A program made the position numbers and the translations under genes. DNA of 64,000 nucleotides. It comes from Actinomycetota bacterium. GTDB taxonomy: Bacteria; Actinomycetota; Actinomycetes; S36-B12. This document shows positions 7,306 through 60,112 of this stretch, in pieces. The stretch covers positions 2,487-66,486 of the forward strand of contig JAUXRN010000032.1 in the NCBI GenBank assembly GCA_030681835.1, written 5' to 3'. The notes beneath the pieces are model-generated. The model made no database searches. It worked only from the letters and a program-made list of their open reading frames with translations, and was not told the origin of the DNA. Numbering within the stretch: the stretch's first letter is position 1; each line of letters begins with the position of its first letter.

Positions 7306-8427
7306 CTAGGAACCTCCGGACGACAGGGCAAGCTTGCGGAAGTAGTTGTTCATCAGAACCGCGAGGAGGACGAGCGCTCCGAGAAACAGTTGAACCCAGT
7401 CCGTGCTCCATCCGGTGTAGTAGATGCCGCTGGACACGACTCCGTAAGTGATCGCACCAAGGGACACCCCAATCGGGGATCCGTATCCGCCGGTGAGCAG
7501 GACCCCGCCGATGACGGCGGCGGCGATCGCGCTGAACACGAACGATGAGCCGCGAGAAGTGTCCGCCCCGTTGAACTGCAGGGTTTGCAGCACCCCGATC
7601 AGGGCAGCACCCATTGATGAGCAAATGAATAGGGTCCGCTTGACTCGGCGCACTGGGACGCCGTTCATCTTGGCGCTTTCCAAGTCGCCTCCGGTGGCAT
7701 ACACCCAGCTTCCGAAGACCGTCCTAAACAGGACCCAGGTGGCCACGGCACCGATGAGGAGCCACCAGCCGAGCGTTGCACTGAATGGGCCGATCTCGCC
7801 TGCGAAGAGCGCGTGGGCTAGCCCATCCGATTCGATGGAGATGCTGGTCGTTCCCGAGAGCAGGCGCGAGAATCCGAGCGTTAGACCTGTCAGCGCCATG
7901 AGCATGGCGAGCGTCACGATGAACGAGCCGACTCCCGTGCGCAAGGTGATATAGCCGTTGATCGCACCCACTACAGCGCCAAGGCCGATCGCCATCGCGA
8001 TGCTAAGCCAAATCGGCAGGCCGTAGTGGGTCGTCGCGATGGCCGTGGTCATCGAGCTTGCGGCGACCACCGCCCCGATCGACAGGTCGAACTCCCCGGC
8101 GATCAGCAGAGCGGCTACCGGGATGGCAATTACGCCAATCTCCGAGGCGGTATCGACCCAACCGGACGTGCCCAGCGGAGTGAGGAATCCATTGCCGCCA
8201 GCCGTGATCGCGAAGAAGACGAATAGTGCCAGCGCCGCCAAGGCGACGCCCGCTTCGGGGCGACGCGCGAGGGAGCGCAGCCGACCGCTCGATGCTGCGG
8301 GTTGTCCTCGTCCACTGTCGGACGAGGACAACCCCCCTGGGTTTGAGTGCGGCGCCGTGCTCGAACCGTGAACGAGCGACTCCGAATCGTTCGCCTGATG
8401 CGTCGTCATCGCACTCAACTCCCTCAA
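7306..8427 (-). CDS. sugar ABC transporter permease (RbsC/BPD_transp_2-like)
   Basis: A multi-TM hydrophobic protein lying between the SBP and ATPase genes. The N-terminal start is uncertain. Confidence 0.8.
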   Translation of the reverse strand: MRELSAMTTHQANDSESLVHGSSTAPHSNPGGLSSSDSGRGQPAASSGRLRSLARRPEAGVALAALALFVFFAITAGGNGFLTPLGTSGWVDTASEIGVIAIPVAALLIAGEFDLSIGAVVAASSMTTAIATTHYGLPIWLSIAMAIGLGAVVGAINGYITLRTGVGSFIVTLAMLMALTGLTLGFSRLLSGTTSISIESDGLAHALFAGEIGPFSATLGWWLLIGAVATWVLFRTVFGSWVYATGGDLESAKMNGVPVRRVKRTLFICSSMGAALIGVLQTLQFNGADTSRGSSFVFSAIAAAVIGGVLLTGGYGSPIGVSLGAITYGVVSSGIYYTGWSTDWVQLFLGALVLLAVLMNNYFRKLALSSGGS

Positions 8428-8433
8428 CCTTGA

Positions 8434-9513
8434 CTACGCCGCGCCGCGCACGCCGTTGTTGTCATTGTTCAACTGGATCGTCTTGTCGACGTTGTCCAGC
8501 GTGACCATTAGCGGTGCGGTCTTGACCTGACCGATGGGGTGCAGTCCGAGCTTTGCGTTCTGCGCTGCGGCAAGAACCCCGTAGTAGCCCTGCAGGTATG
8601 GCTGCTGGTCGACCGCGAACAGGATGGTTCCGGCCTTGACCGCTTCGAGCACGTTCTTCGACAGGTCGCCAGTGGCGAGCTTGGCCGACGACCCGGAATC
8701 GGAGATCGCGCGCAGTGCATTCTCGGCAATGCCCGAGCCGAGTGTGAAGACGCCATCGATGCTGGGATCCGAGCGCAGTGCACCTGCGATGGCGTTGGTC
8801 ACGGCAGTCGGGTTGCCCGCCTGGTCAGACGGGATGGTCAGCAGCGTCGCTGTCCCGCCAGCCGCCTCAAGCGCCTCTTGGTAGCCCTTGCACCGGTCTT
8901 CAAGCGTCGGGTTCCCAGGTACGTGGTTGACGCACAGTCCGTGCGTGACGCCGGCCTCGGCCATCGACTTGCCGGCACCGCTACCGAACACCGCGGGATC
9001 CTCACCGATGTAGGTGAGCGCACCGAGTTCCTCCCAGTTCGGGCCTGCGTTGATCAGCACCAAGGGGATACCTGCATCCGTGATCGCGTTGAAGCCAGGA
9101 TCCTGCACATCGGGAATGTATTCGCCTGCGACGACACCATCCGGATTGGCAGCCAGAGCCGCGTCCGCGAGACGAGTGAGGTCCGGGCCAAGGTTGGTGA
9201 GGTCTTTCGGAGCGGTGTAGTCGACCTGGATCCCGAGATCCTTGCCGGCCTGCTCGGCGCCGGCCTTCAGCGCACTGAAGAACGGATCGGACAGCGGGCC
9301 ACTGATGACGACAATCTTGATCTCGCTCGAGTCTTGCGGTGCTGCCTCTGACGCCTCCTCCGACACGGACGACGATCCGGCGGCGGCCGGGGAGGAGTCG
9401 CTGCTATCGCTCGAGGATGACGTGCTCGAACACGCGGCCACGAGTGCCAGGGCGGAAACGGCGATTGCCCCAACCACCGCACGGCGACGTGCGGTGTTCA
9501 ATCTTGTACCCAT
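8434..9513 (-). CDS. sugar ABC transporter substrate-binding lipoprotein
   Basis: It has a signal peptide with lipobox LVAACSS, a Ser-rich linker and a periplasmic-binding-protein type I fold pattern. Start taken at MGTRLNT (ATG 9513). Confidence 0.85.
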   Translation of the reverse strand: MGTRLNTARRRAVVGAIAVSALALVAACSSTSSSSDSSDSSPAAAGSSSVSEEASEAAPQDSSEIKIVVISGPLSDPFFSALKAGAEQAGKDLGIQVDYTAPKDLTNLGPDLTRLADAALAANPDGVVAGEYIPDVQDPGFNAITDAGIPLVLINAGPNWEELGALTYIGEDPAVFGSGAGKSMAEAGVTHGLCVNHVPGNPTLEDRCKGYQEALEAAGGTATLLTIPSDQAGNPTAVTNAIAGALRSDPSIDGVFTLGSGIAENALRAISDSGSSAKLATGDLSKNVLEAVKAGTILFAVDQQPYLQGYYGVLAAAQNAKLGLHPIGQVKTAPLMVTLDNVDKTIQLNNDNNGVRGAA

Positions 9514-45324: not shown

Positions 45325-46578
45325 ATGACATCTGATACGCAGTTCCCTGTCTCCGGATACGATCCGCAGGCCTCGGAAGTCCCCACTACATCACAAGGAA
45401 CGCCGCTCGCGTACACGGAGCGCTCCTTGAAGGTCGGTCGACGAGGCCCGACGCTCCTCGCGGATCACCATTTGCGTGAGATGACCACGAATCCTGACTA
45501 CGAGCGCATTCCCGAGCGCGTGGTGCACGTTCGAGGGGCGGGCGCCCATGGAACCTTCGTCGGTAACGGTGCCGCGGCGGCCTTCTGCCGGGCAGGCTTC
45601 CTGGCGAAGGGCGTGGAAACTCGACTGTTCGCGCGCTTCTCCACTGTGGTCGGATCTCGCGGCTGAGCAGACACGGCTCGCGATACCCGTGGGTTCGCGG
45701 TGAAGTTCTATACCGGAGAGGGGACCTTCGACCTCGCGGGGAACAACATCCCGGTGTTCTTCATCCAGGACGGCATCAAGTTCCCTGACCTCATCCATGC
45801 CGCCAAACCCCACCCGGACACGGAGGTCCCGCAAGCGCAATCGGCCCACGACACCTTCTGGGACTTCGTCTCATTGCACACGCAGGCAACCCACCACGTG
45901 CTGTGGGTCATGAGCGACCGCGGGATACCGCGGTCCTATCGGATGATGGAGGGCTTCGGAGTGCGCACCTTCCGCGTCTCCGACGCCGAGGGCAAGACGG
46001 CACTGGTGCCCGATCTCGCAGCCGAGGTTGGAGCGCAGCTCGGGCTCACCCCGCCCTCTGTCGATGAGGCGCCCAAGGGCTTCCTGTCACCGGCACCCAG
46101 CCAGCTGAATCGCGGCGTGTTTCCCGCACAGGGGCGCGTCATCGGGATTGTGGTTGGCAGCACGACCGCCGTCGCGGGCTTCGACGATGCACTGGCAGTG
46201 GCTGCGGAGGCGGGAGTCACCGTGCGGCTGGTCGCTTCGACGGGAGCGCCGGTTGACGTGGACGGCGCCGCGATCGGTCCGGACCGCACCTACGCCGCGA
46301 CACGATCGATCGAGTTCGACGCGGTGGTCATCCTCGCCGCCCCGGAAGCGGAGCTCGATGCGCGCGTCATCACCCTGATCGAGGAGGCATACCGCCACGG
46401 CAAGGCGATGGCTTTCGCAGGAGGCTTCACTGCCATGGACGCCGGGATCGTCGAGGACGAAGGCGCATTGACGACGGAGTCACTCGCTGATGCGGTCGCC
46501 ACGCTGATCGAAGCACTCGGTACCCACCGGGTCTGGTCGCGGCTGGAGATGCTGGGCGCACAGACCCACGCCAGCTAG
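45325..46578 (+). pseudogene. katE: large-subunit (HPII/KatE-type) catalase, inactivated by in-frame TGA and ~300-aa internal deletion
   Basis: The N-terminal part reads ERIPERVVHVRGAGAHGTF...RFSTVVGSRG, then TGA (45664-45666), then continues in the same frame as [16 protein letters not shown]...[16 protein letters not shown]...[16 protein letters not shown]. After ...GKTALV it jumps to the linker and C-terminal DJ-1/flavodoxin-like domain ([10 protein letters not shown]...). Confidence 0.8.
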
Positions 46579-48413
46579 GTCCCGGCAGGGCGATCGTTTG
46601 GGTCGTTGCTCCGGGGGCGTGCGGCCGGTGCCAATCGCGCGTTACCGGAGTCGAGCAGTCGACTCGCCGTTTCGTCGATCCGACCGATTCCGGGGCGGAG
46701 GGCATCTAGCCCCGCGGGGAGTGCCTGGGGAGGCACGCCCCGGCGGGCCAGCAGGTGCTCGAGCCAACCGAGGAACTCGAAGAACACGGTGTCGTCGCGC
46801 GCCGCGAGCGCGGCCGCCAGGAACTGCACGACATAGACGAGATCCTCCCGGGTCCGGGCGAGCTTGGCCTCGTCGTACGCAGCCATGGCCGGGAACGATC
46901 GGGCGAGGCCCTGCATCGCCTCCGCGCCAAGCGCGTCGGCATCAGCGAAGAGTTGAGCAGCGACCGGGTCGAGGGGGATCGGTGCAGGGTTGACGGTGGG
47001 GCGGGTGGAGCGCCAACTGGCAATGACGGGTGCGGCCTCCTGGGCGGAGGCCGCCCAGGCGTCGGCTCCAAGGTGCAGGGCGCGACGCGAGTCCGTGCCG
47101 AAGGCCCGGCCGCCGACGATGGCAGGGATCCCGCGTGCATGTGCCGCATCGATGAGTCGGATGACGCCTGGGAAGAAGATCGGCAGGCTGCAGGACACGG
47201 CCAAGGCGTCGCAGCTTGAGCGGTCCAGGAAGTCGGCGACGGCGTCGACGGGCGTGGAGGCCCCGAGCACGCTGACGCCGAAACCATGCGATCGGAGCGA
47301 CTCGCCGAACATCTGCGCGGCCAAGGAGTGCCAGTCCCCTTCCGAGCAGGTCACGACCGTCAGACCGCTCACGTCGACGTGGCTCGTCTCCGCGGCGAGG
47401 GCGTCGAGGGCCGCGGCCGCCACGCCACTCGCCAGGTGCTCGTCGACGGGCGTGAGCTCGTTGCGCTGCCAGCGCTCGCCGACCTCGCACTGCGCGGCAG
47501 CCAGCAGGTCCACCACGATCTGCTCGTAGGGAACGTGGTTGTCCAGGAGGTCGAGCGTCTGGCGGACACCCCCAGTTCGGTCGCCGCTCAGGGCGTCGCC
47601 AAGGTAGGACTCGACGAAATCGCCCGGGGTGGACGTGGTCGTGTGCGTCCCGGCCCGTGCCCAGACCCAGCGGTCGCGTCCGGCCTCCTTCGCCTCGTAT
47701 AGCGCGGCGTCGGCCCTGGCCATCACCTCGGCGGGGTCCCCCGACGACAGCGCGATCCCGGCCGAGAAGGTGATCGGCTGGGGGCGCACCGCCAGCCAGT
47801 GGTCACGCAGCCGGGAGAGGAAGGCGTCGGGGTGGGCCGAGGCAGGAAGGACAACGACGAACTCCTCACCGCCGTAGCGTCCGACGGTGTCGCGACCGCG
47901 GACAGTGGCGAGCAGTGCCGCGCCGAAGGAACGCAGTACGTCGTCCCCCACCGCGTGCCCGAAGTCGTCGTTCACCGCCTTGAAGTGGTCCAGGTCAAGC
48001 ATGATCACGGCTTCGGAATCGGCGAGCCTTCCCAGCGAGCGCTCCAGCATCCTGCGATTCGGCAGCCCCGTGAGGACATCGGTCGACGCCGACTCGGCCA
48101 GTCGCTCCACTCGATCGCTCAGCTCCAGCGCCTGCCGGGCGTCGAGCAGGAACGTCGGCAGGTAGCGGTCGAGGAGAGTGCGTGCGCTCGTGGCGGGCCG
48201 TGCGGCCGCCAGGACGGGAGCGCCTTCCCCGAAGGAGAGGTCTGCTGGGATCGCGCTTCCGTCGGCCGTGTCAGCCGGGACGACGTCGCCGCCGAGGCCC
48301 TGGACCAGCGTCGCAGCAATGCGCGCCGCGTCGGCGGCCGTGTCCACCCACAGCAGCGAGCGCGTCGCCTCAAGGACCGCGTTCGGAACCACGGCCCGGG
48401 CATCATTCGCCAT
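46575..48413 (-). CDS. multidomain diguanylate cyclase: N-terminal domain, GGDEF, B12-binding cap (Wx9EH), Rossmann B12-binding domain, C-terminal helical domain
   Basis: GGDEF with GGEEF (aa ~108-255). [18 protein letters not shown] matches W-x9-[14 protein letters not shown]...SCSL...VGGRAF matches DxHxxG...SxL...GG. A C-terminal ~130-aa helical domain of unknown type follows. Confidence 0.85.
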
Positions 48414-49454: not shown

Positions 49455-49838
49455 ACACCATTGTGTACCCGATCGGAGCGCCGAGTCGCATGGCATGACA
49501 ACGACGAGGCGATGGTCCTACGGTTGACGTGCATCCGGTGGCCGATGGCCCACGTGGCGGGCGCACTCACCCCGGCGAGTCCGCCGACCCCCCTACGCCG
49601 TGCCGCACAGCTGGCGGCGCCTCGCGAAATCCTCCTCATCGCGGGCGGAGCTGTCGAGGACGAGCTGCCATCCGCCATGTCGATCCAGGCGGGCTCCCCG
49701 GAAACGGTGTCGGCTTGGGCGATTCCCGCAGCAGGCACTGGCCGGACTGGCGAGCCAGCCCCAGGAATGGGAACGACGCGTCAGAGGAATCCTGGATGCC
49801 GAGCTCGGTGCGGCGGGCGGAAGGCCTGCGCCGCGATA

Positions 49839-50828
49839 ATGGCGAGCATGGTGACCAGCCGGCCAGTCCTTGTCGTGGCTTTGGCGGTCGGGTTGGCATG
49901 GGGTGTCGGAGCGGCGCCCGGGATCGTGTCCGCCCAGATTGCTGCGCTGCGCCCGGTGCCCGGCACCGACTGCCCGCTCTTCCCGGCCAACAACTACTGG
50001 CATGCCCGCGTCGATTCCCTGCCGGCCCATGCCGCGTCCGCGCGATGGATGGCGAACATGCATCCCGCGAGCGATCTTCATCCCGACTTCGGCCCCTCCT
50101 TCGGGGAGCAGGAGGTTCCGTACGGCATCCCGATAACCGTGGTTCACGGTGCTGCCCGCGTTCCTGTCGCCTTTGACTACGCCGATGAAAGCGACCGGGT
50201 CCCGTATCCGCTGAACAAGGACACCGCGATAGAAGGCGGCAGGAATGCTGATGGCGACCGGCACGCCATCGTGGTGGACGCCGACACCTGCACGCTGTTC
50301 GAGACGTGGAACACCCGGCAGACAAGCGCAGGATGGACGGCCGGGTCGGGTGCTGTGTGGTCACTGCGGTCGAACAAGCTGAGGCCCCGGTCATGGACGT
50401 CGGCTGACGCTGCCGGATTGCCGATACTTCCCGGCCTGCTGAGGTGGGACGAGGTCGAGGCCGGTCGGGTCGACCACGCCATCCGCTTCACGACCGACGT
50501 CACCCAACGGGCATTCATCTGGCCCGCCCGCCACCAGGCGGGGTCGACCCCATCCCGGGCCTTCCCGCCGATGGGCGCGCGGTTCCGCATGAAGCCCGGC
50601 TACTCCACTGCGGGCTTCTCGGCAAGGGCGAAGGTGGTCCTCACCGCCATGAAGCGATACGGCCTGGTCCTCGCAGACAACGGCTCCCCGTGGTACTTCC
50701 AGGGTGATGCGGATCCGGCATGGCCCGCCGACCTGATCGAGGAGCTCAAGCGCATCCCCGCCTCCGCATTCGAGGCCGTGGATACGGCCGGGCTCCGGAT
50801 ATCGCCAAACTCAGCGGCGTCCAGATAG
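49839..50828 (+). CDS. secreted conserved hypothetical protein
   Basis: Start at MASMVTS with a signal peptide ending AQIAA. It has strongly conserved-looking motifs (FPANNYWH, GDRH, WTSADAAGLPILPGL, HAIRFT, ADNGSPWY). Family not recognised. Confidence 0.6.
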   Translation: MASMVTSRPVLVVALAVGLAWGVGAAPGIVSAQIAALRPVPGTDCPLFPANNYWHARVDSLPAHAASARWMANMHPASDLHPDFGPSFGEQEVPYGIPITVVHGAARVPVAFDYADESDRVPYPLNKDTAIEGGRNADGDRHAIVVDADTCTLFETWNTRQTSAGWTAGSGAVWSLRSNKLRPRSWTSADAAGLPILPGLLRWDEVEAGRVDHAIRFTTDVTQRAFIWPARHQAGSTPSRAFPPMGARFRMKPGYSTAGFSARAKVVLTAMKRYGLVLADNGSPWYFQGDADPAWPADLIEELKRIPASAFEAVDTAGLRISPNSAASR

Positions 50829-52979
50829 AGCCAGCCGGTCGTTTGCCGACTTCTGCGAATCGCCGTGAATGTCAATGGTCGGCAGCAGCCTGGCAAGCCA
50901 CGCCGGTAGCCACCAGTTGGCCTTGCCCATGAGCGTCATCGTCGCGGGGACAAGCACCATGCGCACGATCGTCGCGTCGATGAGGATCGCGGTGGCCAAC
51001 CCCAGGCCCATCATCTTGGTCGCTGGGTCCTCGCCGAACACGAAACTGAAGTACACGCAGATCATGATGAGGGCGGCCGACGTGATGACCCGGGCCGACG
51101 ATGCGATGCCACGCACGACGGATGCCGTGATGTCGCCTGTGCGCACGTACTCCTCGCGGATGCGCGAGAGCAGGAAGACCTCGTAGTCCATCGACAGTCC
51201 GAACAGCACCGCGAACATGAACATCGGGATGAACGGGATCACGGGGACCGTCGACTCGAGACCGATGAGGTTCATGCCCCATCCCCACTGGAACACCATG
51301 ACGATGACGCCGTACGCGGCGCCGATGCTCAGCAACGTCATGCCCGCAGCCTTGAGGGGTACCAGCACCGACCGGAACACCACCAGCAGCAGCAGGCAGG
51401 ACAGGAGGATGACACCGGTGATGAACAGCGGGAGGCGGTCACGCACCTTGTGGCCGATATCGGCCCAACTGGCCGTCTGACCGCCGATGTGGGCGGAAGC
51501 GGCACTGCCGGCGAGCACCGGTGGGAACACATCCTCACGAAGTCTCTCGATTGTCGCGACTGTGGCGTCCTCCTGCGGAGCGGTGGTGGGGAACGCGAGC
51601 ATCGTGGCGACCCCCGCGGAGGTCTGTACCTCGGGGTCCGTCACGAAGGCGATCCCTGGATCCGCAGCGACGGCCTCGCGCAGCGGCTCGACTACGGCCG
51701 GGTCGGCCGACACGTCGACTGCGATCAGGAGCGGACCGTTGATGCCGGGACCGAAGCCCTGGGCAACGAGGTCGTAGGCGAGGCGCTCGGTGCGTGACTG
51801 CGGCAGCGAGCCCTCGTCGGGGAAGCCCAGGCGCAGGGCCAGCACGGGAGCGGTGAGGGCAAGCAGGAGCGCCGTCGTGCCGACGAGGTAGAACCAGGCG
51901 TTGCGGGAGACATGCGACCCCCACCGCATCCAGCGGGCACTGACATGGTGAGCGTCGGCCGTGACGATCCCGCGGCGGCCGCGGCGGTTGATGCGTTGAC
52001 CAGCGACACCCAGCAAGGCCGGCAGCAGGGTCACCGAAGCCGCGACCATGACGAGCACGATGATCGAAGTGGCGATGCCTGCCGCGGTCATGAAGGGGAT
52101 GCCCGCAAACGCCATTCCGAGGACGGCGATGACGACCGTCCCGCCCGCGAAGATGACCGTCTGGCCCGCCGTGGCAACTGCACGGCCGGCGGCCTCGGGC
52201 ACCGGAAGCCCTTGCGCGAGGAACTCGCGATGCCGGGTAACCAGCAGGAGGGCGTAGTCGATGCCCACACCGAGCGCGATCATGCTGGCCATCTGTGGCG
52301 CCCAGCTGGGGATGTCGAAGATGCGAGTGACGAGCGCCATGGAGCTGACGCCTACGACTAGGCCGATCAAGGCGATCCCGATGGGCAGGCCCATCGCGAT
52401 GAGAGATCCGAATGCGATGAGCAGGATGATCATCGCGGCGATCAGGCCGACCAGCTCACTGGTGGCGGAAGCGGTTTCCTCGAACGTGAAGAAGAGGTCA
52501 CCGCCGGCCTCGATCTGTAGGGGCGACCCGACCCGCGCCTCGGCGACGGCAGCCTTGAGGCTCTCGAGGTCGGCGGTGGTGAGGTCGGCAACCATCGGGT
52601 ACTGCAGGCGGACGATTGCGACGGTGCCATCAGGCGATACCTCCTCGGTGGTCTCCAGTACGTGCGGCAGTCCGGCAACGATGGACTGGACCTCGTCGAG
52701 TGCAACCCGGGCGGCGGGCGAGGTTGTGAAGGTGGTGGCGGCATCGAGCGGCGTCATGACGACCTGCGCGGTGATGCCGCCGCCGGTCGCGCCCGCGGAC
52801 TGAAGGAGGTCGACGGCGGCCTGGGAGTCCAGCCCCGGCACGACGAAGGAGTCCTCCATCTGCTCGCCAAGGCCTACCGAGGCGCCGACAACGAGTACGG
52901 CTGCGACCACCCATGCAGCGATGACCGCCCACGTGTGCGTCGCGGCGAATCTTCCCCAGCGGAACAGGTAACTCGACAT
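50811..52979 (-). CDS. MMPL-family (RND superfamily) membrane transporter
   Basis: Start at MSSYLFRWGRFA. 722 aa with a 2 x 6 TM plus two extracytoplasmic loops pattern and GVGIDYALLLV / GLSMDYEVFLL motifs. Confidence 0.85.
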   Translation of the reverse strand: MSSYLFRWGRFAATHTWAVIAAWVVAAVLVVGASVGLGEQMEDSFVVPGLDSQAAVDLLQSAGATGGGITAQVVMTPLDAATTFTTSPAARVALDEVQSIVAGLPHVLETTEEVSPDGTVAIVRLQYPMVADLTTADLESLKAAVAEARVGSPLQIEAGGDLFFTFEETASATSELVGLIAAMIILLIAFGSLIAMGLPIGIALIGLVVGVSSMALVTRIFDIPSWAPQMASMIALGVGIDYALLLVTRHREFLAQGLPVPEAAGRAVATAGQTVIFAGGTVVIAVLGMAFAGIPFMTAAGIATSIIVLVMVAASVTLLPALLGVAGQRINRRGRRGIVTADAHHVSARWMRWGSHVSRNAWFYLVGTTALLLALTAPVLALRLGFPDEGSLPQSRTERLAYDLVAQGFGPGINGPLLIAVDVSADPAVVEPLREAVAADPGIAFVTDPEVQTSAGVATMLAFPTTAPQEDATVATIERLREDVFPPVLAGSAASAHIGGQTASWADIGHKVRDRLPLFITGVILLSCLLLLVVFRSVLVPLKAAGMTLLSIGAAYGVIVMVFQWGWGMNLIGLESTVPVIPFIPMFMFAVLFGLSMDYEVFLLSRIREEYVRTGDITASVVRGIASSARVITSAALIMICVYFSFVFGEDPATKMMGLGLATAILIDATIVRMVLVPATMTLMGKANWWLPAWLARLLPTIDIHGDSQKSANDRLALSGRR

Positions 52980-53180
52980 GGTGGCTACTCCCGGTATCTC
53001 AAGCGCGTCGGTCTGGTACCGACCCGGATACAGGGTGATCGCCCGAAGGTCCGTGGGGATCGGCCTCCCGGCCGGAACTCCCTCGGCCATGCGGTGGGCT
53101 CTGGGCTCGTCCTTTCGACCGATCCGTCCGCACCCCACAGCATCTACGCTGCAGGCGTGGTGCGATCCGGATTGCTCTCC

Positions 53181-54302
53181 ATGTGGGATGAGCCGGCTGT
53201 TCCAGATCCCCCGCGCCGCGTGTGGCGTGACTGGGTCCTCATCGCCGTGCTCGAGACCGCTGCCGTCCTCGAAGGCATCCTTCGTCCGGACGTGACATGG
53301 CGACCGATCGTCACCGCCCTGTGCATGGCGCTGATCCCGTCGCTTCTCTGGCGTCGGACTCACCCGTTGGCAGTCATCGTCGTCGTCTTCGGTGCCATCA
53401 CCGTGGTTGACGTGCTCGCCCCGGTCACTCCCGACGACCCCGTCGGTCTGTACGCCACCGCGTTCGTGCTGCTGCTGCCGTATGCGCTGGCTCGGTGGGG
53501 CTCAGGGCGCCACATCGTCATCGGTCTCGCAGTCACCATTGGGCTCCACGTCGTGCGCACGCTCGTGCACCTCAACGTGGGCGACATGGTCATTGGCATG
53601 CCGTTCCTGCTCCTGCCCGCTCTGCTCGGCCTCGCCGTTCGGTACCAGCTCAGTTCGCGCGCTCGCGAGCTCGAACAGGTGACGATGCGCGAACGCGAGC
53701 AGCTGGCCCGGGAGCTCCACGACACCGTCGCGCACCACGTCTCCGCGATCGTCATCCAGGCGCAGGCGGGGCGCGTCACGGCCGGCGTCCGGCCGGAGGC
53801 GGCCCTCGAAGCGCTTCGCGTCATCGAGTCGGAGGCCTCGCTCACTCTTGCGGAGATGCGCGACATCGTTGGGACCCTGCGCACCGGGGAGGCGGCAGAG
53901 CTGGTTCCTCATCGCGGTGTGGCCGACCTGCCGGCCCTCGCGGGCCTGGCTGGCGGCTCGCCACTCGTCGACATACGGGTATCCGGCGACATGGATGACC
54001 TGCGCCCGTCGGTGGGAGCGGCGGTTTACCGCCTCGCGCAGGAATCGATCACCAACGCCGTACGGCACGCGCGCCACGCAACTCGGGTCGATGTGCATGT
54101 GGTCGGCGACGCGGACGCTGTCCGCCTCACCGTCGTCGACGACGGCGACCCGACGTCGGCTGCCCGGTCACCCTTCGGTTACGGGATCGTGGGGATGAAG
54201 GAGCGAGCGGCCCTGCTGGGCGGGACCCTCGAGGCTGGTCCCGATCCCGGGCGCGGCTGGACCGTCTCGGCAGTCCTTCCGCGTGCGGGAGGCGGGCGAT
54301 GA
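53181..54302 (+). CDS. sensor histidine kinase (HisKA_3/NarX-DesK type) with multi-TM N-terminus and no obvious ligand-binding domain
   Basis: ~5 TM segments, then the H-box ELHDTVAHHVSAIVIQ and the HATPase region (NAVRHA...DDG...GYGIVGMKERA). Confidence 0.85.
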   Translation: MWDEPAVPDPPRRVWRDWVLIAVLETAAVLEGILRPDVTWRPIVTALCMALIPSLLWRRTHPLAVIVVVFGAITVVDVLAPVTPDDPVGLYATAFVLLLPYALARWGSGRHIVIGLAVTIGLHVVRTLVHLNVGDMVIGMPFLLLPALLGLAVRYQLSSRARELEQVTMREREQLARELHDTVAHHVSAIVIQAQAGRVTAGVRPEAALEALRVIESEASLTLAEMRDIVGTLRTGEAAELVPHRGVADLPALAGLAGGSPLVDIRVSGDMDDLRPSVGAAVYRLAQESITNAVRHARHATRVDVHVVGDADAVRLTVVDDGDPTSAARSPFGYGIVGMKERAALLGGTLEAGPDPGRGWTVSAVLPRAGGGR

Positions 54303-54952
54303 TCCGGGTGCTCGTCGCTGACGACCAGGAACTGGTCCGCACTGGCCTCACGATGATTCTCGAAGCCCAGCCCGACATCGAGGTGGTGGGCAGTGCGGCC
54401 GACGGACGCGAAGCGGTGGCGATGGCGATGGCGTTGCGGCCCGACGTGTGCCTCTTCGACATCCGTATGCCCGAGGTCGACGGCATTGAGGCCACGCGCC
54501 GACTCGCTGGTGCCGGAGTGGCCGACCCCATCGCCATCGTCGTCATCACCACATTCGACCTTGACGAGTACGTCCACGGTGCGTTGAAGGCGGGGGCTCG
54601 GGGCTTCCTGCTGAAGGACTGTGGGCCTGATCTGCTCGTTCAGGCGATCCATGCCGCGGCCGATGGGGATGCGCTCATCGCACCCAACGTCACGGCCAGG
54701 CTGCTTGCCGAGTTCGCTCGATCGGGGGCGGGTCCGGCACCGGCGCAGCCGATCGCGCCACTGACCAGCCGCGAGGAGGAGGTGCTCGTCACGCTGGCCA
54801 AGGGGCGCACGAACGCCGAGATTGCCGACGAGCTCCACATCAGCCTCAGCACGGTCAAGACGCATCTCACCAGCCTCATGGGCAAGCTTGGCGCCCGGAA
54901 CCGCGTCGAGATGGCGATGTGGGCTTACGAGACCGGACGCGTGCGGGCATAG
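54299..54952 (+). CDS. NarL/LuxR-family response regulator
   Basis: MIRVLVADDQELVR...DVCLFDIRMP receiver plus a C-terminal LuxR HTH (LTSREEEVL...EIADELHISLSTVKTHL). ATGA overlap with the HK. Confidence 0.9.
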   Translation: MIRVLVADDQELVRTGLTMILEAQPDIEVVGSAADGREAVAMAMALRPDVCLFDIRMPEVDGIEATRRLAGAGVADPIAIVVITTFDLDEYVHGALKAGARGFLLKDCGPDLLVQAIHAAADGDALIAPNVTARLLAEFARSGAGPAPAQPIAPLTSREEEVLVTLAKGRTNAEIADELHISLSTVKTHLTSLMGKLGARNRVEMAMWAYETGRVRA

Positions 54953-55055
54953 GCGTCGTGGGATGGTCATGGCGACGCGACGACCACCGGGGCCACCCGA
55001 ACTCCGGGAGCACCGTGGTGGATCCTTGGAAGGTGACCATCGAAAGGACCAAGCA

Positions 55056-55853
55056 ATGACCGCGTCCCCGGCAGCCGTGTCAGACAGCGCCACGATCAGT
55101 CAGCTCGGCAGGATCCGGCGATGGAACGTCATCGCAGGGTTCGCGCATCTCGCGCAGCTGTTTGCGATCCTGGTGCTCGCCAACGATTTCACCTTGCCGG
55201 TGACCGCGAGCTACATGGCCGGGCCTCCCGGCACGCCCTCATCCGATCCGGTCGTATTGTTCGACACGCGGATCGCCTGGGGTGTAGCCCTCTTCTTCGG
55301 ACTGTCGGCCGTGTTCCACTTCGCTGTGTCCCTGCCGCCCTTCAACCGGCGATACATGGCCGGGTTGGTCGCCCAGCACAACTACTTCCGGTGGGTGGAG
55401 TACTCGCTCAGCTCTTCGGTGATGATGGTCCTCATCGCCCAGATCGTCGGCATCTCCGACGCCGCCGCGCTCATCGCCATCTTCGGTGTCAACGCGTCCA
55501 TGATCCTGTTCGGCTGGCTCCAGGAGAGGTACGAGACCCCCGGGAGTGGCGGATGGATGCCGTTCGTTTTCGGATGCATCGCAGGCATCGTCCCCTGGCT
55601 CGCGGTCGCGCTCTACGTGATTGCGCCGGGCTCGACCACCGGCGCAGAACCGCCCGCCTTTGTTTACGGGATCGTCATCTCGCTGTTCGTCTTCTTCAAC
55701 TCCTTCGCCCTCGTCCAGGTGTTGCAGTACAAGCGTCTGGGCAAGTGGTCGAACTACCTCAACGGGGAACGCACCTACATCACGCTCAGCCTGGTGGCCA
55801 AGTCGCTGCTCGCGTGGCAGATCTTCGCTGGCACCCTTGCGCCTGGTTCGTGA
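55056..55853 (+). CDS. heliorhodopsin (7-TM retinal protein, inverted topology family)
   Basis: 265 aa, nearly colinear with heliorhodopsin 48C12 as recalled: ANDFTLPVT, GPPGT, FRWVEYSLSSSVMMVLIAQ (counterion Glu), FGVNASMILFGWLQERY, FGCIAGIVPW, FFNSFALVQ, GKWSNYL, SLVAKSLLAWQIF (Schiff-base Lys). Confidence 0.9.
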   Translation: MTASPAAVSDSATISQLGRIRRWNVIAGFAHLAQLFAILVLANDFTLPVTASYMAGPPGTPSSDPVVLFDTRIAWGVALFFGLSAVFHFAVSLPPFNRRYMAGLVAQHNYFRWVEYSLSSSVMMVLIAQIVGISDAAALIAIFGVNASMILFGWLQERYETPGSGGWMPFVFGCIAGIVPWLAVALYVIAPGSTTGAEPPAFVYGIVISLFVFFNSFALVQVLQYKRLGKWSNYLNGERTYITLSLVAKSLLAWQIFAGTLAPGS

Positions 55854-56389
55854 GCCATGCTGTCGACCAGTTCCTGAGGGCGGTCGTGACCGACCAGTCC
55901 TGGGTGTTCCCCGAGGTCCCAGGCCGAGACCTGCTGATACATGAGTACCTGCTGCCGGGAGAGTTCCCGGCGAAGGTCAGCATCACGATCATCGCCTTCA
56001 AGCAATGGCAGCAAGGCCAGGTCGACGCGTGGATCAGCAGGATTGCGCAGGAGGGGATCCCGCAGACGCCTCACGGGTGCACCGACCTCGACCAGGTGAT
56101 CCTCGAGTTGCCGGTCATATCGGGGCGCTATCAGGTCGTCCGCCGGTTCATCGATGGCGGCATGGCTGCCAGCATCCGGGACCCTGAGGTCCTCGCACGG
56201 ACCATCACGCTGTACGGCTCTGTGGATCGCTTCTGCTCGCCGCTGGGAATCTCGTCTCGCGAGGACGTCTCCGTTCGGGTCGTCCGGCGCGATGGCTCAG
56301 TGGTGTGGGGAACCACAGGGCGCGTCAGCGAGCCGGGCATCGTGGACCTGCTCGTGGCACTGGGAGGGATCGATCCCTCGGCGCAGTGA
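55850..56389 (+). CDS. hypothetical protein (179 aa) translationally coupled to heliorhodopsin
   Basis: The GTG at 55850 overlaps the heliorhodopsin TGA (GTGA). GC3 is high throughout. It has no TM segment or signal peptide. Family not recognised; there is a vague thioredoxin-fold/ATP10-like feel (ITIIAFKQW...VRVVRRDGSVVWGTTG). Confidence 0.6.
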   Translation: MSHAVDQFLRAVVTDQSWVFPEVPGRDLLIHEYLLPGEFPAKVSITIIAFKQWQQGQVDAWISRIAQEGIPQTPHGCTDLDQVILELPVISGRYQVVRRFIDGGMAASIRDPEVLARTITLYGSVDRFCSPLGISSREDVSVRVVRRDGSVVWGTTGRVSEPGIVDLLVALGGIDPSAQ

Positions 56390-56412
56390 TCGGAGCGGGT
56401 ACTGCCCTGTGC

Positions 56413-56853
56413 TCAGGTGGCGGCGAGTCGTGCGGCCAGGCGGGTGATCGACGTCTGGAATCCCTTGCGGGCGGCAGCCGCAACGGGCCGTGCAAGAAAC
56501 TGGGGCACTCCGGGAACGCGAATGTCCTCGACCCAGGTGAGGCGTGAGGTGGAGTCACCGGTCGAGGCGACCGACAGGTGGACCTGCCCGGTCAGCACGG
56601 GGCCGATCTTCGTGATGCGCACGGTCATCGCCGCTGGATCGAGTTCGTCGACGCGCATGCGGTCCGGCAGGGCAAGGGGCCCGATACCTGAAGTGGCGAC
56701 AAACTCGGTGCCTGGCCCACCGTCGCCGGAGATGACCTTCACCCGGGTCAGGGGCACCCAATTTGCGTGGCCTCTCCAGTCGATCAGCTCGCCGAAGACG
56801 ACATCGGCAGGCAGTGGCAAGTCACGTATGACCGTGAAGCAGACACTCGCCAT
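56413..56853 (-). CDS. SRPBCC (polyketide cyclase/dehydrase-like) family protein
   Basis: 146 aa with the typical pattern V...L..W..W.P.... Confidence 0.7.
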   Translation of the reverse strand: MASVCFTVIRDLPLPADVVFGELIDWRGHANWVPLTRVKVISGDGGPGTEFVATSGIGPLALPDRMRVDELDPAAMTVRITKIGPVLTGQVHLSVASTGDSTSRLTWVEDIRVPGVPQFLARPVAAAARKGFQTSITRLAARLAAT

Positions 56854-56903
56854 GAGATTGATCCTTCGTTTCGTTGTTGCGCCGTCCGTCCGTCCGTGCT
56901 TCC

Positions 56904-57284
56904 CTAGCCGTCGACGATGACCTCACCGTCTCTCACCGATGCGGGCAGGACGGTCAAGGGCGCCGGCGACTTGCCCATCGCGATGAGCCGACGCGACCAC
57001 GTGGGGGCCTTCAAGCCGGCGAAGCCCGGAGTCCAATCCAGGTTCTGCCCCGAGCAGACGTCGAAGCTCGAGTTGTGCCACGGACAGGTGATGACCCCGT
57101 TGTCATAGCCTCCCCGCGGACCTCGGCTCAGACTGAGCCCGGCATGGGGGCACCTGTCCCTCACCACGCAGACCTCGTCGGGGGACTGGGACCGGCGGAC
57201 CACGAGATACGCGTCGCCGTCAATGGTGACTTGCGTGGGCTCGTCCACGGCGAAATCGGTGAGCAGACCCAGTGACGTTGGCAC
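56904..57284 (-). CDS. Rieske [2Fe-2S] domain protein
   Basis: CPH (RDRCPHAG) and CPWH (ITCPWHNSSF) ligand boxes. Start proposed at GTG 57284. The upstream part of the raw ORF overlaps the photolyase promoter and start. Confidence 0.7.
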   Translation of the reverse strand: MPTSLGLLTDFAVDEPTQVTIDGDAYLVVRRSQSPDEVCVVRDRCPHAGLSLSRGPRGGYDNGVITCPWHNSSFDVCSGQNLDWTPGFAGLKAPTWSRRLIAMGKSPAPLTVLPASVRDGEVIVDG

Positions 57285-57341
57285 ACGGCCACAGTACGCG
57301 TTGCCGACGGGCTCGCACGCTGGGCGGCGGGCGGGGGAGGG

Positions 57342-58835
57342 ATGCGATTGACTGGGGTCGTGACGAGGCGCTGGCTGTTCGGCGACCAGCTCGGCCCGCA
57401 CTTCCTGGACGACCACGACCAGCCGGTGCTGATGATTGAGTCACGCGAGGTGTTTGCCCGTCGCAGGTTCCATCGAGCGAAGGCCCACCTGGTGCTTTCG
57501 GCAATGCGCCATCGGGCGGCGGAGCTGGGCGAGCAGTGCGTGTATGTGCGGGCCGCCAACTACACGGTGGCGCTGGACCGCATTGGTGAGCCGCTGAGCG
57601 TGTGCCACCCGACGTCCCGTTCGGCCCTCACGTTCGTCCTGGGGCATGGCGACATCGACATCCTGCCGGCGCGTGGCTTCGCGACGTCAGCTGATGACTT
57701 CGCACGCTGGGTGCAGTCCCGCGGGCGCAGGCGACTGCTGATGGAGGACTTCTACCGAGACTCGCGACGTCGGCTCCGAGTGTTGATGGATGGCGAGGAG
57801 CCAGTCGGGGGCCGCTGGAACTTCGACGCCGACAACCGGGAGCCACCACCCCGTTCGTCATCGCTCGGCGTTGCCGAGCCGGCATGGCCCGTGGAGGACG
57901 AGATCGATCAGGAGGTGCGCGACGACCTGGATCGGTGGCAGCGCGATGGGCACGTGAGGTTTCTGGGCGTGGACGGACCTCGGCGTTTCGGCGTCACCCG
58001 CGATGAGGCGCTGGCCATTCTCGACCGCTTCATCACCCATCGCCTACCCAAGTTCGGCCCGCACGAGGACGCAATGCTGTCCGGTGATCCCTGGATGGCG
58101 CACTCGATGCTGTCGGCGCCGATGAACCTGGGCCTGCTCGAGCCCGTTGAGGTCGTCGCGCGGGCCGAGGGTGCCTATCGGCGTGGCGAGGCCCCGCTGG
58201 GGTCCGTTGAGGGGTTCATCCGGCAGGTCCTGGGCTGGCGCGACTTCGTCTGGCACCTGTACTGGCATCTGCCGGCGTCGTACCGCGACCTCAATGAGCT
58301 CCGCGCGACGGAGCCCCTGCCGGACTGGTTCGCCGAACTCGACGCGGGCTCAGTCGATGCGGCCTGCCTGTCCGGGATCCTTGCCGACGTGCGCGATCAC
58401 GGCTGGGTGCACCACATCCCGCGGCTGATGGTGTTGGGCAACTACGCAATGCAGCGCGGGTGGGACCCAGCGCAGGTCACTGACTGGTTCCATCGCGCGT
58501 TCGTCGACGGGTACGACTGGGTGATGGTGCCCAACGTGGTCGGGATGTCGCAGTATGCCGACGGCGGCATCCTGGCGACCAAGCCGTACGCCGCCGGGGG
58601 CGCCTACATCAACCGGATGGGCGACTATTGCCGTGGCTGCCGCTATGACCCCCGCACGAGGGTCGGGGACGACGCCTGCCCGTTCACAGCGGGCTACTGG
58701 TCCTTCTTGCACCGCAACCGTGAACTCCTCGCCGGCAACGCACGCCTGGCCCAGCCACTGAGCGGACTGGCCCGACTCAACGACCTCGAGGAAGTCCTCG
58801 CTCAGGAGTCCGCGCGCGGGTCCTCTGCTCCCTGA
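57342..58835 (+). CDS. FeS-BCP cryptochrome/photolyase family protein (PhrB/CryB-like, bacterial (6-4) photolyase type)
   Basis: Colinear with Agrobacterium PhrB as recalled: GDQLGP, SAMRH, PVGGRWNFDADNREPP, VEGFIRQVLGWRDF, HHIPRLMVLGN, PNVVGMSQYADGG, and the Fe-S Cys cluster CRGCRYDP...DACPF. Confidence 0.9.
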   Translation: MRLTGVVTRRWLFGDQLGPHFLDDHDQPVLMIESREVFARRRFHRAKAHLVLSAMRHRAAELGEQCVYVRAANYTVALDRIGEPLSVCHPTSRSALTFVLGHGDIDILPARGFATSADDFARWVQSRGRRRLLMEDFYRDSRRRLRVLMDGEEPVGGRWNFDADNREPPPRSSSLGVAEPAWPVEDEIDQEVRDDLDRWQRDGHVRFLGVDGPRRFGVTRDEALAILDRFITHRLPKFGPHEDAMLSGDPWMAHSMLSAPMNLGLLEPVEVVARAEGAYRRGEAPLGSVEGFIRQVLGWRDFVWHLYWHLPASYRDLNELRATEPLPDWFAELDAGSVDAACLSGILADVRDHGWVHHIPRLMVLGNYAMQRGWDPAQVTDWFHRAFVDGYDWVMVPNVVGMSQYADGGILATKPYAAGGAYINRMGDYCRGCRYDPRTRVGDDACPFTAGYWSFLHRNRELLAGNARLAQPLSGLARLNDLEEVLAQESARGSSAP

Positions 58836-60112
58836 AATGGCTGTGGCCCACGGGCGGCGCCGAGAGCTCCGTCGAGGACGGCGCGGAAGTCGATGGTGGC
58901 GGAGATGCTGGTGAGCAGGGCGAGCATCCCGGTGACTGCTCGATGCTCCAGCAGCAGGCCCGGCGGGAAGGTCAACTTGCCGACGTTCTGCAATGACGCT
59001 GCCGGGTCGGACCAGCCATCGGCGCGCCCGGTCATCCACTCGGACGTGAACTGGAACTCCTCCTGCTCGTAAGGCGTGAGGTCGATCGCCAGAAGTGCCA
59101 CGAGTTCCTCCGCCGTCGTGGAGTCGACGAGCATTCCCGCGTCCAGCCACATCTGTCGCAGGCCGTCGAGGTCATCGGCGGCGGCGTACTCGAACGTCCG
59201 CACGAAGAGGTCGGTGAATGCGCGGGCGGGATGCCCGACCGAGCCGAAGTCCAGGACGCCGAGGGAGCCGTCGTCGAGCAGGCGGTAGTTGCCCGGATGC
59301 GGGTCGGCATGGATGGCTCCCACGAGGTGCGCGGACCACAACGTGAACCGAGCGAGGCCCCGGCCCGCTGCATCGCGTTGCTCCTCTGGGGCATCGGCGA
59401 GGCTTGAGTACGGAATGCCCGGGAGCCATTCGGTCACGAGCAGCGTGGGCTCGGCGAACAGGACCCTCGGGATCGTGACCACGCCCGGGTGCACCTCGCT
59501 CCACGCCTTGCGGAAGGTCTCCTGCCAGCGAGCCTCGCGCGTGTAGTCGAGTTCCTCCCACAATCGCTCCGCGTGCTCGTCGAGCAGGGCCTTCACGTCC
59601 AATGTCGGGAGCAGCCGGTGGATAAGGGGGATGAAGGTCCGCAACTGCAGCAAGTCCGCGCGGACGATGCGGTGGGCGTCGGGGTACTGGATCTTCACGG
59701 CAATGGGAGTTCCGTCTGGCCACGTCCCGGCATGCACCTGGCCGAGGCTGGCGGCGGCGATCGCATCCGGCTCGATGTGGGTGCCGGGCGGGAGCCCCAC
59801 GACGAGGGCCTCGACCTTGGACCACGGACGCGGTCGCGCGTTCTCATACAGGCGTCCGAGCGAGGCCAGCATGGCCGCCTGCTCCGGCGGGAGGGTGGAG
59901 GAGAAGAGCGCCAGGATCTGGCCGAACTTCAGGGCGGGACCCCGCGCCTTCGCCAGTGCGCTGGTGAGGGACTCCACCGATGCCTGCATCGCATTGCCGT
60001 ACGCGGCGTCGCGATCGGCTCCAAAGGCGGTCGCCGTCGCGGCTGAGGCGAAGCGGGCACCTGACTTCACCGGGACAGCAGCGAGCGAGGCCGCGCGAGC
60101 AAATAGCCCCAT
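58802..60112 (-). CDS. ABC1/UbiB/AarF-family atypical protein kinase
   Basis: LKFGQILA...AAASLGQVH...AVKIQYP...HADPHPGN...LDFG. Start at MGLFAR, 6 nt after AGGAGA. Confidence 0.85.
   Translation of the reverse strand: MGLFARAASLAAVPVKSGARFASAATATAFGADRDAAYGNAMQASVESLTSALAKARGPALKFGQILALFSSTLPPEQAAMLASLGRLYENARPRPWSKVEALVVGLPPGTHIEPDAIAAASLGQVHAGTWPDGTPIAVKIQYPDAHRIVRADLLQLRTFIPLIHRLLPTLDVKALLDEHAERLWEELDYTREARWQETFRKAWSEVHPGVVTIPRVLFAEPTLLVTEWLPGIPYSSLADAPEEQRDAAGRGLARFTLWSAHLVGAIHADPHPGNYRLLDDGSLGVLDFGSVGHPARAFTDLFVRTFEYAAADDLDGLRQMWLDAGMLVDSTTAEELVALLAIDLTPYEQEEFQFTSEWMTGRADGWSDPAASLQNVGKLTFPPGLLLEHRAVTGMLALLTSISATIDFRAVLDGALGAARGPQPFQGAEDPRADS

Follow-up and report, generated by a model that had tools for sequence, protein, structure and literature searches.

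A heliorhodopsin gene behind an MMPL-linked two-component system in an Actinomycetota genome: probably two independent gene units side by side

Genes and control regions at the heliorhodopsin locus

The physiological output of heliorhodopsins (HeRs) is still largely open. In this study, we analyzed a HeR gene which, in a stretch of 64,000 nucleotides (nt) from an Actinomycetota bacterium (assembly GCA_030681835.1, contig JAUXRN010000032.1, positions 2,487 to 66,486; hereafter the window), lies directly behind the genes of a histidine kinase (HK) and a response regulator (RR). An original prediction made from the DNA alone had proposed HeR as a possible light input of this two-component system (TCS) and a divergently transcribed MMPL-family transporter gene as a candidate target. 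A HeR-to-TCS pathway would, if true, be the first phototransduction chain of an inverted-topology rhodopsin; the window locus does not deliver one. The adjacency of HK-RR and HeR is weak evidence for light signalling, and it probably reflects two independent gene units which came to stand side by side in a rearrangement-prone region.

The features of the locus are listed below with their coordinates and strand in the window. Loci of other genomes are designated by numbers, L001 being the closest relative of the HeR locus. The open reading frame (ORF) of 179 codons behind HeR is called ORF179.

50811-52979, minus strand: MMPL-family RND transporter (Pfam MMPL, E 2e-72), divergent from the kinase operon
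52980-53156, unstranded: divergent MMPL/HK control region with a 19-mer at 53108-53126 and TACGCT at 53145-53150
53157-54302, plus strand: DesK/LiaS-like membrane histidine kinase (HisKA_3 and HATPase_c)
54299-54952, plus strand: NarL/LuxR-type response regulator (Response_reg and GerE)
50820-55041, unstranded: segment of 4222 bp absent from L001 (MMPL, HK, RR and 89 nt of spacer), from blastn colinearity and junction alignment
54953-55055, plus strand: RR-HeR spacer with the Shine-Dalgarno sequence GAAAGGA in its 3' part
55056-55853, plus strand: heliorhodopsin (PF18761, NCBIfam equivalog, 48C12 alignment)
55850-56389, plus strand, alternative start 55886: ORF179, a Cys-less thioredoxin-fold protein (AlphaFold2 model) without Pfam family
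56413-56853, minus strand: SRPBCC/polyketide-cyclase-like protein (Pfam Polyketide_cyc2), convergent with ORF179
56904-57416, minus strand: Rieske [2Fe-2S] protein (Pfam Rieske), divergent from the DPRP gene
57342-58835, plus strand: photolyase-related protein of the DPRP family (PF04244, E 2e-36), 1.5 kb downstream of HeR

Four co-oriented plus-strand ORFs, namely HK, RR, HeR and ORF179, were confirmed in the ORF list and the sequence of the window. The gene identities of the original prediction (HisKA_3 kinase, NarL-type RR, true HeR, divergent MMPL) were upheld by Pfam, and its reading of the gene borders was found correct in the sequence: HK and RR overlap by ATGA (54299-54302), the HeR stop codon overlaps the ORF179 start by GTGA (55850-55853), and 103 nt separate the RR stop from the HeR ATG.

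The HeR matches Pfam PF18761 over profile positions 1-242 of 242 (E 2e-98; 328.9 bits, cutoff 26.7) and the NCBIfam equivalog NF038020 with 334.7 bits (cutoff 100), so that both profile cutoffs are passed, and it aligns end to end with the structure of the 48C12 HeR (6SU3; E 2e-104). The lysine of transmembrane (TM) helix 7 in SLVAKS and the counterion glutamate in WVEYS, both pointed out in the original prediction, are K249 and E115 and correspond to the Schiff-base Lys241 and to Glu107 of 48C12 in the alignment to 6SU3/9LJJ. From this similarity, the protein is expected to have the inverted membrane topology, to bind retinal and to run through a slow photocycle without pumping.

The kinase contains HisKA_3 (PF07730, E 1e-16) and HATPase_c (PF02518, E 4e-10), and the H-box LHDTVAH can be read from its sequence. 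Its N-terminus comprises six hydrophobic segments within residues 17-158, connected by loops no longer than about 8 residues, and no extracytoplasmic, PAS or GAF domain was detected in the protein; the intramembrane-type architecture proposed originally, with an input region of TM segments only, is thereby borne out. Homologues of the kinase give faint matches to DUF7134. The regulator contains Response_reg (E 4e-26) and GerE (E 6e-20), with DD at residues 8-9 and D54 in LFDIRMP. Neither protein reaches a named NCBIfam equivalog, LiaS, MadS, MctS, MacS, UhpB and NarX/Q being among the HK comparisons; the best HK equivalog score is 80 bits at a cutoff of 408, and LiaS gives 56 bits at a cutoff of 450.

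HK translation probably starts at 53157, a conserved GTG, or at the GTG directly following it (53160), and not at the ATG at 53181 chosen in the original prediction, because a TACGCT box followed by GTG-GTG-CGA is conserved in nine loci. The position of the ATG is occupied by Leu or Ile in the other loci with these genes except L115, and a start at GTG 53157 or 53160 gives a protein of 381 or 380 amino acids (aa), as in most homologues.

A consensus scan of 52700-56700 revealed no intrinsic terminator and no sigma-70 promoter, and the predicted fold of the RR-HeR spacer is no more stable than those of shuffled sequences (z = -0.09) and contains no stable hairpin; the original prediction had likewise seen no convincing terminator. 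Also, no TANNNT hexamer is found in the window spacer. Since HeR stands directly behind RR without a terminator, read-through from the TCS promoter into HeR is plausible in the window and in L115, and the genes may be co-transcribed.

The MMPL/kinase/regulator module in other genomes

More than 7900 homologues of the kinase were found at E<1e-30. Full-length identity is about 60% for many of these, which include entries from Kribbella, Euzebya and Mycobacteriales. The MMPL/HK-RR module was found in 11 other loci; in the 12 compared, Kribbella among them, HK identity is 51-93%. The order MMPL (minus), HK (plus), RR (plus) is present in L005, L081, L102-L106, L108/L109 and L115, where HK is 61-93% and the divergent MMPL orthologues are 65-97% identical to those of the window; the MMPL protein matches the NCBIfam families MmpL3/actII only below their cutoffs. 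RR orthologues, 72-99% identical, always follow the kinase. As the divergent MMPL/HK-RR arrangement is kept in every full module locus examined, MMPL, the candidate target of the original prediction, is supported as the likely target of the TCS: all of these loci pair the kinase with an MMPL gene, and HeR is not a constant neighbour.

Six of the module loci carry no HeR in the sequence covered. In L102-L106, MMPL is divergent from HK-RR and no HeR lies within 6-8 kb on each side; HK identity is 82% in L102, 80% in L103, 83% in L104, 68% in L105 and 61% in L106 (Kribbella antiqua), and the first three are the closest kinase orthologues on long contigs (80-83%). In L081, MMPL-HK-RR is present and no HeR was found in the 461 bp downstream of the regulator, the extent of its sequence. 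A metagenome scan with the kinase yielded four close relatives only, and the metagenome matches L082 and L083 contain HK-RR without MMPL or HeR. In the TM region, kinase orthologues are 50-92% identical with HeR nearby or not, and similarity there is no greater among HeR-linked loci than among unlinked ones.

An alignment of nine module loci revealed a conserved intergenic 19-mer, CGTCCTTTCGACCGATCCG, at 53108-53126 over the -35 zone, and the -10-like box TACGCT at 53145-53150, 6 nt before the conserved GTG-GTG-CGA. Within the window, the 19-mer (CGTCCTTTNGGCCGAKCCG) occurs in the MMPL/HK region only, plus one 3-mismatch match at chance level, and exact matches among 118 loci are confined to module intergenic regions. 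We therefore abandoned the idea of a separate copy of the regulator site at HeR. The location of TACGCT 6 nt before the conserved GTG suggests that the kinase mRNA is leaderless and its operon possibly autoregulated, and the conserved position of the 19-mer suggests a candidate regulator-binding site.

Nothing is conserved downstream of the regulator stop in the alignment of the module loci, and therefore the module ends at the regulator. Because it has motifs of its own, lacks conservation past RR and contains a TM region conserved irrespective of HeR, the TCS is part of a self-contained MMPL module. Judged by sequence comparison, this combination of an MMPL protein, a HisKA_3 kinase and a NarL-type regulator is widespread in actinobacteria. 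No papers on MMPL together with HisKA_3, or on DUF7134, turned up in literature searches, and a broader search for MMPL and TCS gave only unrelated mycobacterial systems.

Heliorhodopsin neighbourhoods in relatives

To compare the HeR context, 13 window proteins were used as queries against 80 HeR loci (1.24 Mb); each species was represented by a single locus with flanks of up to 10 kb. In L001, HeR is 96% and ORF179 89% identical at the aa level, and the DNA is about 93% identical. The locus is colinear with the window for the genes GGDEF-B12, ABM (a small antibiotic-biosynthesis-monooxygenase-family protein), SSI (a subtilisin-inhibitor-like protein), o455, HeR, ORF179, SRPBCC and ABC1. MMPL, HK and RR are absent through a clean 4222-bp gap with breakpoints at window 50819/50820 and 55041/55042 (blastn), and HeR and ORF179 are intact. 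HeR has probably been captured into the o455 operon in L001, because the o455 stop lies there 2 nt before the HeR ATG.

The MMPL C-termini are too variable to distinguish insertion from deletion, and for this reason the direction of the indel was taken from the outgroup L116. About 50 nt at the 3' end of the window spacer (55007-55055) are homologous to the region upstream of HeR in L116 and mostly missing in L001, so that the state of L001 is most simply read as a deletion. This part of the spacer, including the Shine-Dalgarno sequence GAAAGGA, is the native upstream region of HeR. A second indel removes Rieske and DPRP from L001 (window 56874-58841), and L001 has 888 extra bp at 7840-8727. 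Because at least three indels within about 12 kb (window 49565-58841 versus L001 7840-11892) separate genomes of about 93% identity, the surroundings of HeR are a hotspot of gene gain and loss and prone to rearrangement. A mobile element was rejected as the cause, since no integrase or transposase adjoins the indel, and a reading of the region as a 'light island' was dropped since the photolyase-related gene is missing from L001.

In L116-L118 (HeR 90%), the genes HeR, ORF179, SRPBCC, Rieske, DPRP and ABC1 are kept, with a divergently oriented, unrelated gene upstream of HeR. The SRPBCC gene is shared by these loci and L001; the Rieske gene is present in L116/L117 and absent in L001, and its true start in the window probably lies further downstream, because the L116 homologue has 126 aa. 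No orthologue of the HK-RR pair within 10 kb and no ORF179 were found in L002 and L004 (HeR 82-85%); L002 has a 33%-identical NarL-type regulator 5.3 kb upstream of HeR on the other strand. The neighbours of HeR are mutually unrelated in L002, L004, L006, L009 and L012 (aldo-keto reductase, DUF202, GNAT, CMD, META, cation-ATPase fragment).

Direct adjacency of HK-RR and HeR is confined to the window and L115. Lack of synteny in relatives, which the original prediction itself had named as speaking against a pathway, is thus largely what the comparison gave, and no enrichment of this TCS type around HeR was seen: in a census by phmmer with single-sequence queries, with other kinase families outside the survey, a HisKA_3 catalytic region occurred in one of the 80 HeR loci (L005) and receiver domains in nine, or about 9 per Mb. 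For Actinobacteria, about 9 receiver domains per Mb is near background.

A different arrangement with a receiver domain was observed in acI/Nanopelagicales. In L020 (9221-9826, minus strand), L021, L023 and L024, a divergent gene near HeR encodes a 201-aa receiver protein, with the receiver-domain match 211-229 nt upstream of HeR and a C-terminal half which looks ANTAR-like (PdtaR-like) by eye. This arrangement recurs more than the HK-RR/HeR arrangement of the window. In L020 and L021, a DPRP gene lies behind HeR on the same strand.

ORF179 is the most consistent neighbour of HeR in this clade. It lies behind HeR, overlapping or within a few tens of nt, in L001, L003, L005, L108/L109 and L116-L118, where HeR is 81-96% identical (L001, L003, L005, L108, L116). 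As a universal partner of HeR it was discarded, since a profile search with a hidden Markov model detected it in only L001, L003 and L005 of the 80 HeR loci. The family comprises 149 homologues, all hypothetical and apparently restricted to Actinomycetota; ORF179 has no Pfam or NCBIfam match, and none of the homologues contains a Pfam domain. The overlap of a 179-aa ORF with the HeR stop exists as described originally, and 4-nt overlaps of this kind are also present in L116 and L108, but the start is ambiguous, as most homologues have about 160-167 aa, which fits the alternative GTG at 55886. The AlphaFold2 model (pLDDT 90.6) has a thioredoxin-like fold with 239 matches in the PDB at E<=0.001 in Foldseek, led by TlpA, ResA, Sco, Etrx and peroxiredoxins (E ~4e-6, TM ~0.5, probability 1.0 for the top matches). 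No conserved Cys is present in the family alignment: the CxxC site reads F-K/R-Q-W/G-Q/H-Q, with QWQQ at the CxxC position of ORF179, and the invariant core is RRFIDGGM...P.VLARTIT.Y. In L107, a homologue of 45% identity lies directly behind a gene for dodecin, a flavin-binding protein, with no HeR beside it.

DPRP is kept with HeR in L116/L117, and DPRP genes of 33-40% identity occur near HeR in the acI loci L020, L021, L023 and L031.

Further genes upstream of the module were noted. At 46575-48413 (minus strand), a 612-aa protein consists of GGDEF followed by B12-binding_2 and B12-binding and has a CarH-like B12 region (NCBIfam E 8e-12); it is 96% identical in L001, four genes upstream of HeR; by its domains, it could be a cobalamin-based, light-responsive diguanylate cyclase. 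The ORF at 45700-46578 (plus strand) matches the catalase profile at positions 107-205 only, plus Catalase_C, and may be a truncated or frameshifted catalase; Bulzu et al. 2021 (PMC8612252) mention catalase in the vicinity of HeR. The product of o455 (49800-50828, plus strand), whose 3' end overlaps the MMPL stop in the window, looks secreted and has no Pfam or NCBIfam match.

Explanations of the adjacency and comparison with known systems

The preferred explanation, which we regard as probable, is that of two independent units. In the first, MMPL would be transcribed divergently from a leaderless operon for the all-membrane HisKA_3 kinase and the NarL-type regulator. The signal sensed by the kinase would come from the membrane or envelope or from the state of the transporter, and the phosphorylated regulator would act on the shared intergenic motif and thereby control MMPL and its own operon. 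The second unit would consist of HeR followed by ORF179, in a variable neighbourhood with the genes of DPRP and the B12-binding diguanylate cyclase. On this view, HeR would not serve the kinase as a dedicated input. Going by the HeRs studied so far, it most likely binds a partner directly and in a light-dependent manner, be this partner soluble or in the membrane; the best local candidates would be ORF179 and DPRP.

Several observations weigh against complete independence of the two units. The 3.3-kb contig L115, about 94% identical to the window, contains MMPL-HK-RR followed by HeR after a spacer of 21 nt, having lost 54972-55049 in a 78-nt deletion relative to the window. Because the RR-HeR junction is common to two genomes, the window and L115, it is real, and fusion of the genes into an operon is tolerated or favoured, as the spacer has shrunk to 21 nt in L115. 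(At L115 3157-3177, little of the spacer is left after this deletion and the Shine-Dalgarno sequence is gone; the contig ends after 47 HeR codons.) L005 (HeR 83%) has the orthologous module 4.2 kb upstream of HeR with three minus-strand genes between them, and therefore co-transcription of RR and HeR is impossible there. In L108/L109 (HeR 81%), ORF179 is followed by genes for DUF1269, an ArsR-type regulator and an AHSA1 protein and then, 2.1 kb downstream, by the module. The module and HeR-ORF179 are found within 5 kb in three diverged lineages (window/L115, L005, L108/L109) which differ in arrangement and have no other tested window gene in common. This recurrent proximity exceeds random placement; it could reflect selection for linkage instead of inherited synteny, and a single ancestral neighbourhood, later rearranged locally, can also account for it. 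Also, ORF179 homologues of 61-75% identity occur in L110-L114 with no HeR beside them, ORF179 and DPRP are not constant neighbours of HeR, DPRP being absent in L001, and the loss of the module in L001 was read at the HeR locus only. We nevertheless consider any functional link of HeR and the module unlikely. It is likewise improbable that HeR-ORF179 and MMPL/HK-RR form a loosely linked functional set in one freshwater/soil Actinomycetota family, in which HeR would light-tune the kinase or the lipid transporter and thereby adjust the envelope; such a set would explain why the units stay within 5 kb in three lineages with changed neighbours.

The specific pathway of the original prediction, in which HeR is the accessory photoreceptor of the intramembrane-sensing kinase via TM-TM contact and the NarL-type regulator passes the signal to MMPL, appears quite unlikely. 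The co-oriented genes without a terminator, the junction shared by the window and L115, the module at 2-4 kb from HeR-ORF179 in L005 and L108/L109 where the other neighbours have turned over, and a kinase without a sensory domain of its own are all consistent with it, and a general HeR-TCS link has been proposed from genome context (PMC8612252). However, HeR is intact after the precise loss of the module in L001 and has no HK-RR orthologue next to it in L116, L002 and L004. Moreover, the six module loci without HeR in the sequence covered include the closest long-contig kinase orthologues, the TM domain of the kinase is conserved irrespective of HeR, such a kinase was found in 1/80 HeR loci, and MMPL provides the module with a constant membrane partner. 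The same comparative evidence (L001, L116 and the module loci without HeR) bears on a direct light modulation of the MMPL transporter by HeR, with kinase and regulator as bystanders, for which the regulation of the ABC transporter OmrDE by OcHeR would be the precedent (PMC11109279). The proximity of HeR-ORF179 to the whole module cannot separate MMPL from the kinase as a partner, but MMPL is on the opposite strand and no MMPL group is among the published HeR operon partners (PMC11109279); this explanation appears very unlikely.

A coupling in the reverse direction is a serious possibility with a less than even chance: in the window and L115, HeR-ORF179 would be expressed from the autoregulated TCS promoter, so that an envelope or membrane signal sets the HeR level. 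The window spacer of 103 nt contains no terminator, stable hairpin or TANNNT hexamer, and the 21-nt spacer of L115 leaves no room for a promoter outside the RR coding sequence. Against this stands the homology of the last 50 nt of the window spacer, possibly more, to the upstream region of HeR in L116. Since the gene upstream is divergent there, the L116 HeR must have its own promoter, and therefore an independent HeR promoter may persist in the window; in addition, the arrangement is confined to one narrow lineage. That HeR binds and modulates a soluble partner in the light, either ORF179 or DPRP, is a further possibility, again with a less than even chance. The start of ORF179 overlaps or closely follows the HeR stop in L001, L003, L005, L108 and L116, and DPRP is near HeR in the window, in L116/L117 and, independently, in the four acI loci. 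Binding of a photolyase by HeR has been published (PMC9769723), and photolyase is among ten recurrent HeR operon partner groups (PMC11109279). The ORF179 homologues without HeR, the HeR genes of L002 and L004 without ORF179, the absence of DPRP and Rieske from L001 and the two opposite-strand genes between DPRP and HeR argue against such a partnership, and the published case concerns another photolyase class in a Firmicute.

With two independent units as the preferred explanation, the window locus would show how an eye-catching 'operon' arises by local rearrangement. The analysis yields a defined, widespread MMPL/HisKA_3/NarL module with a candidate regulator-binding motif, and a Cys-less thioredoxin-fold family often directly behind HeR as a candidate HeR partner. 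The window and L115 with the module, and L001 and L116 without it, form a natural comparison set for the dependence of HeR on the kinase.

DesK-DesR, LiaS-LiaR and BceS-BceR consist of intramembrane-sensing HisKA_3 kinases with NarL-family regulators. The window TCS resembles these systems in the TM-only N-terminus with minimal loops, in HisKA_3 plus HATPase_c, in the REC plus LuxR-type regulator encoded next to the kinase and in the genetic tie to a membrane-protein gene. In contrast to them, the linked membrane protein is an MMPL/RND transporter and not LiaF, BceAB or a desaturase. The HeR resembles 48C12 (6SU3/6SU4) in full length, Glu107, Lys241 and the seven-TM pattern; the differences are ordinary sequence divergence only, and the window HeR has no extra domains.

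The HeR functions shown so far all consist in direct binding, the targets being glutamine synthetase, photolyase and an ABC transporter (PMC11109279; PMC9769723). In these systems, which include the photolyase bound by TfHeR and OmrDE regulated by OcHeR, HeR is a regulatory helper encoded next to its target, and ten neighbour groups recur in the same operon as HeR, with photolyase among them and TCS genes not (PMC11109279). The window has a photolyase-related gene 1.5 kb from HeR and a soluble-protein gene directly behind it, which overlaps the HeR stop provided that translation begins at GTG 55850. The neighbours differ from the published partners in being a DPRP-family protein and an uncharacterised thioredoxin-fold protein, and DPRP is not in the HeR transcription unit.

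Bulzu et al. 2021 (mSphere, PMC8612252) put forward HeR-to-TCS signalling on the basis of genome context and claimed that TCS domains are statistically enriched near HeR, and the statement of the original prediction that such signalling had only been suggested in this way is correct. The window shares with these cases a HeR with a histidine kinase and a regulator nearby in a monoderm (Actinomycetota). The published kinases have HisKA fused to PAS, GAF, HAMP and similar domains, and the regulators are of the Response_reg/Trans_reg_C type (PMC8612252), whereas the window pair is HisKA_3/NarL with an all-membrane sensor and belongs to an MMPL module mostly found without HeR, its adjacency to HeR not being kept in close relatives. 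The HeR-to-kinase idea is thus already published, and the window is a further, weak instance of it with another TCS type, in which all components are ordinary members of known families and the juxtaposition of HK-RR and HeR is lineage-restricted.

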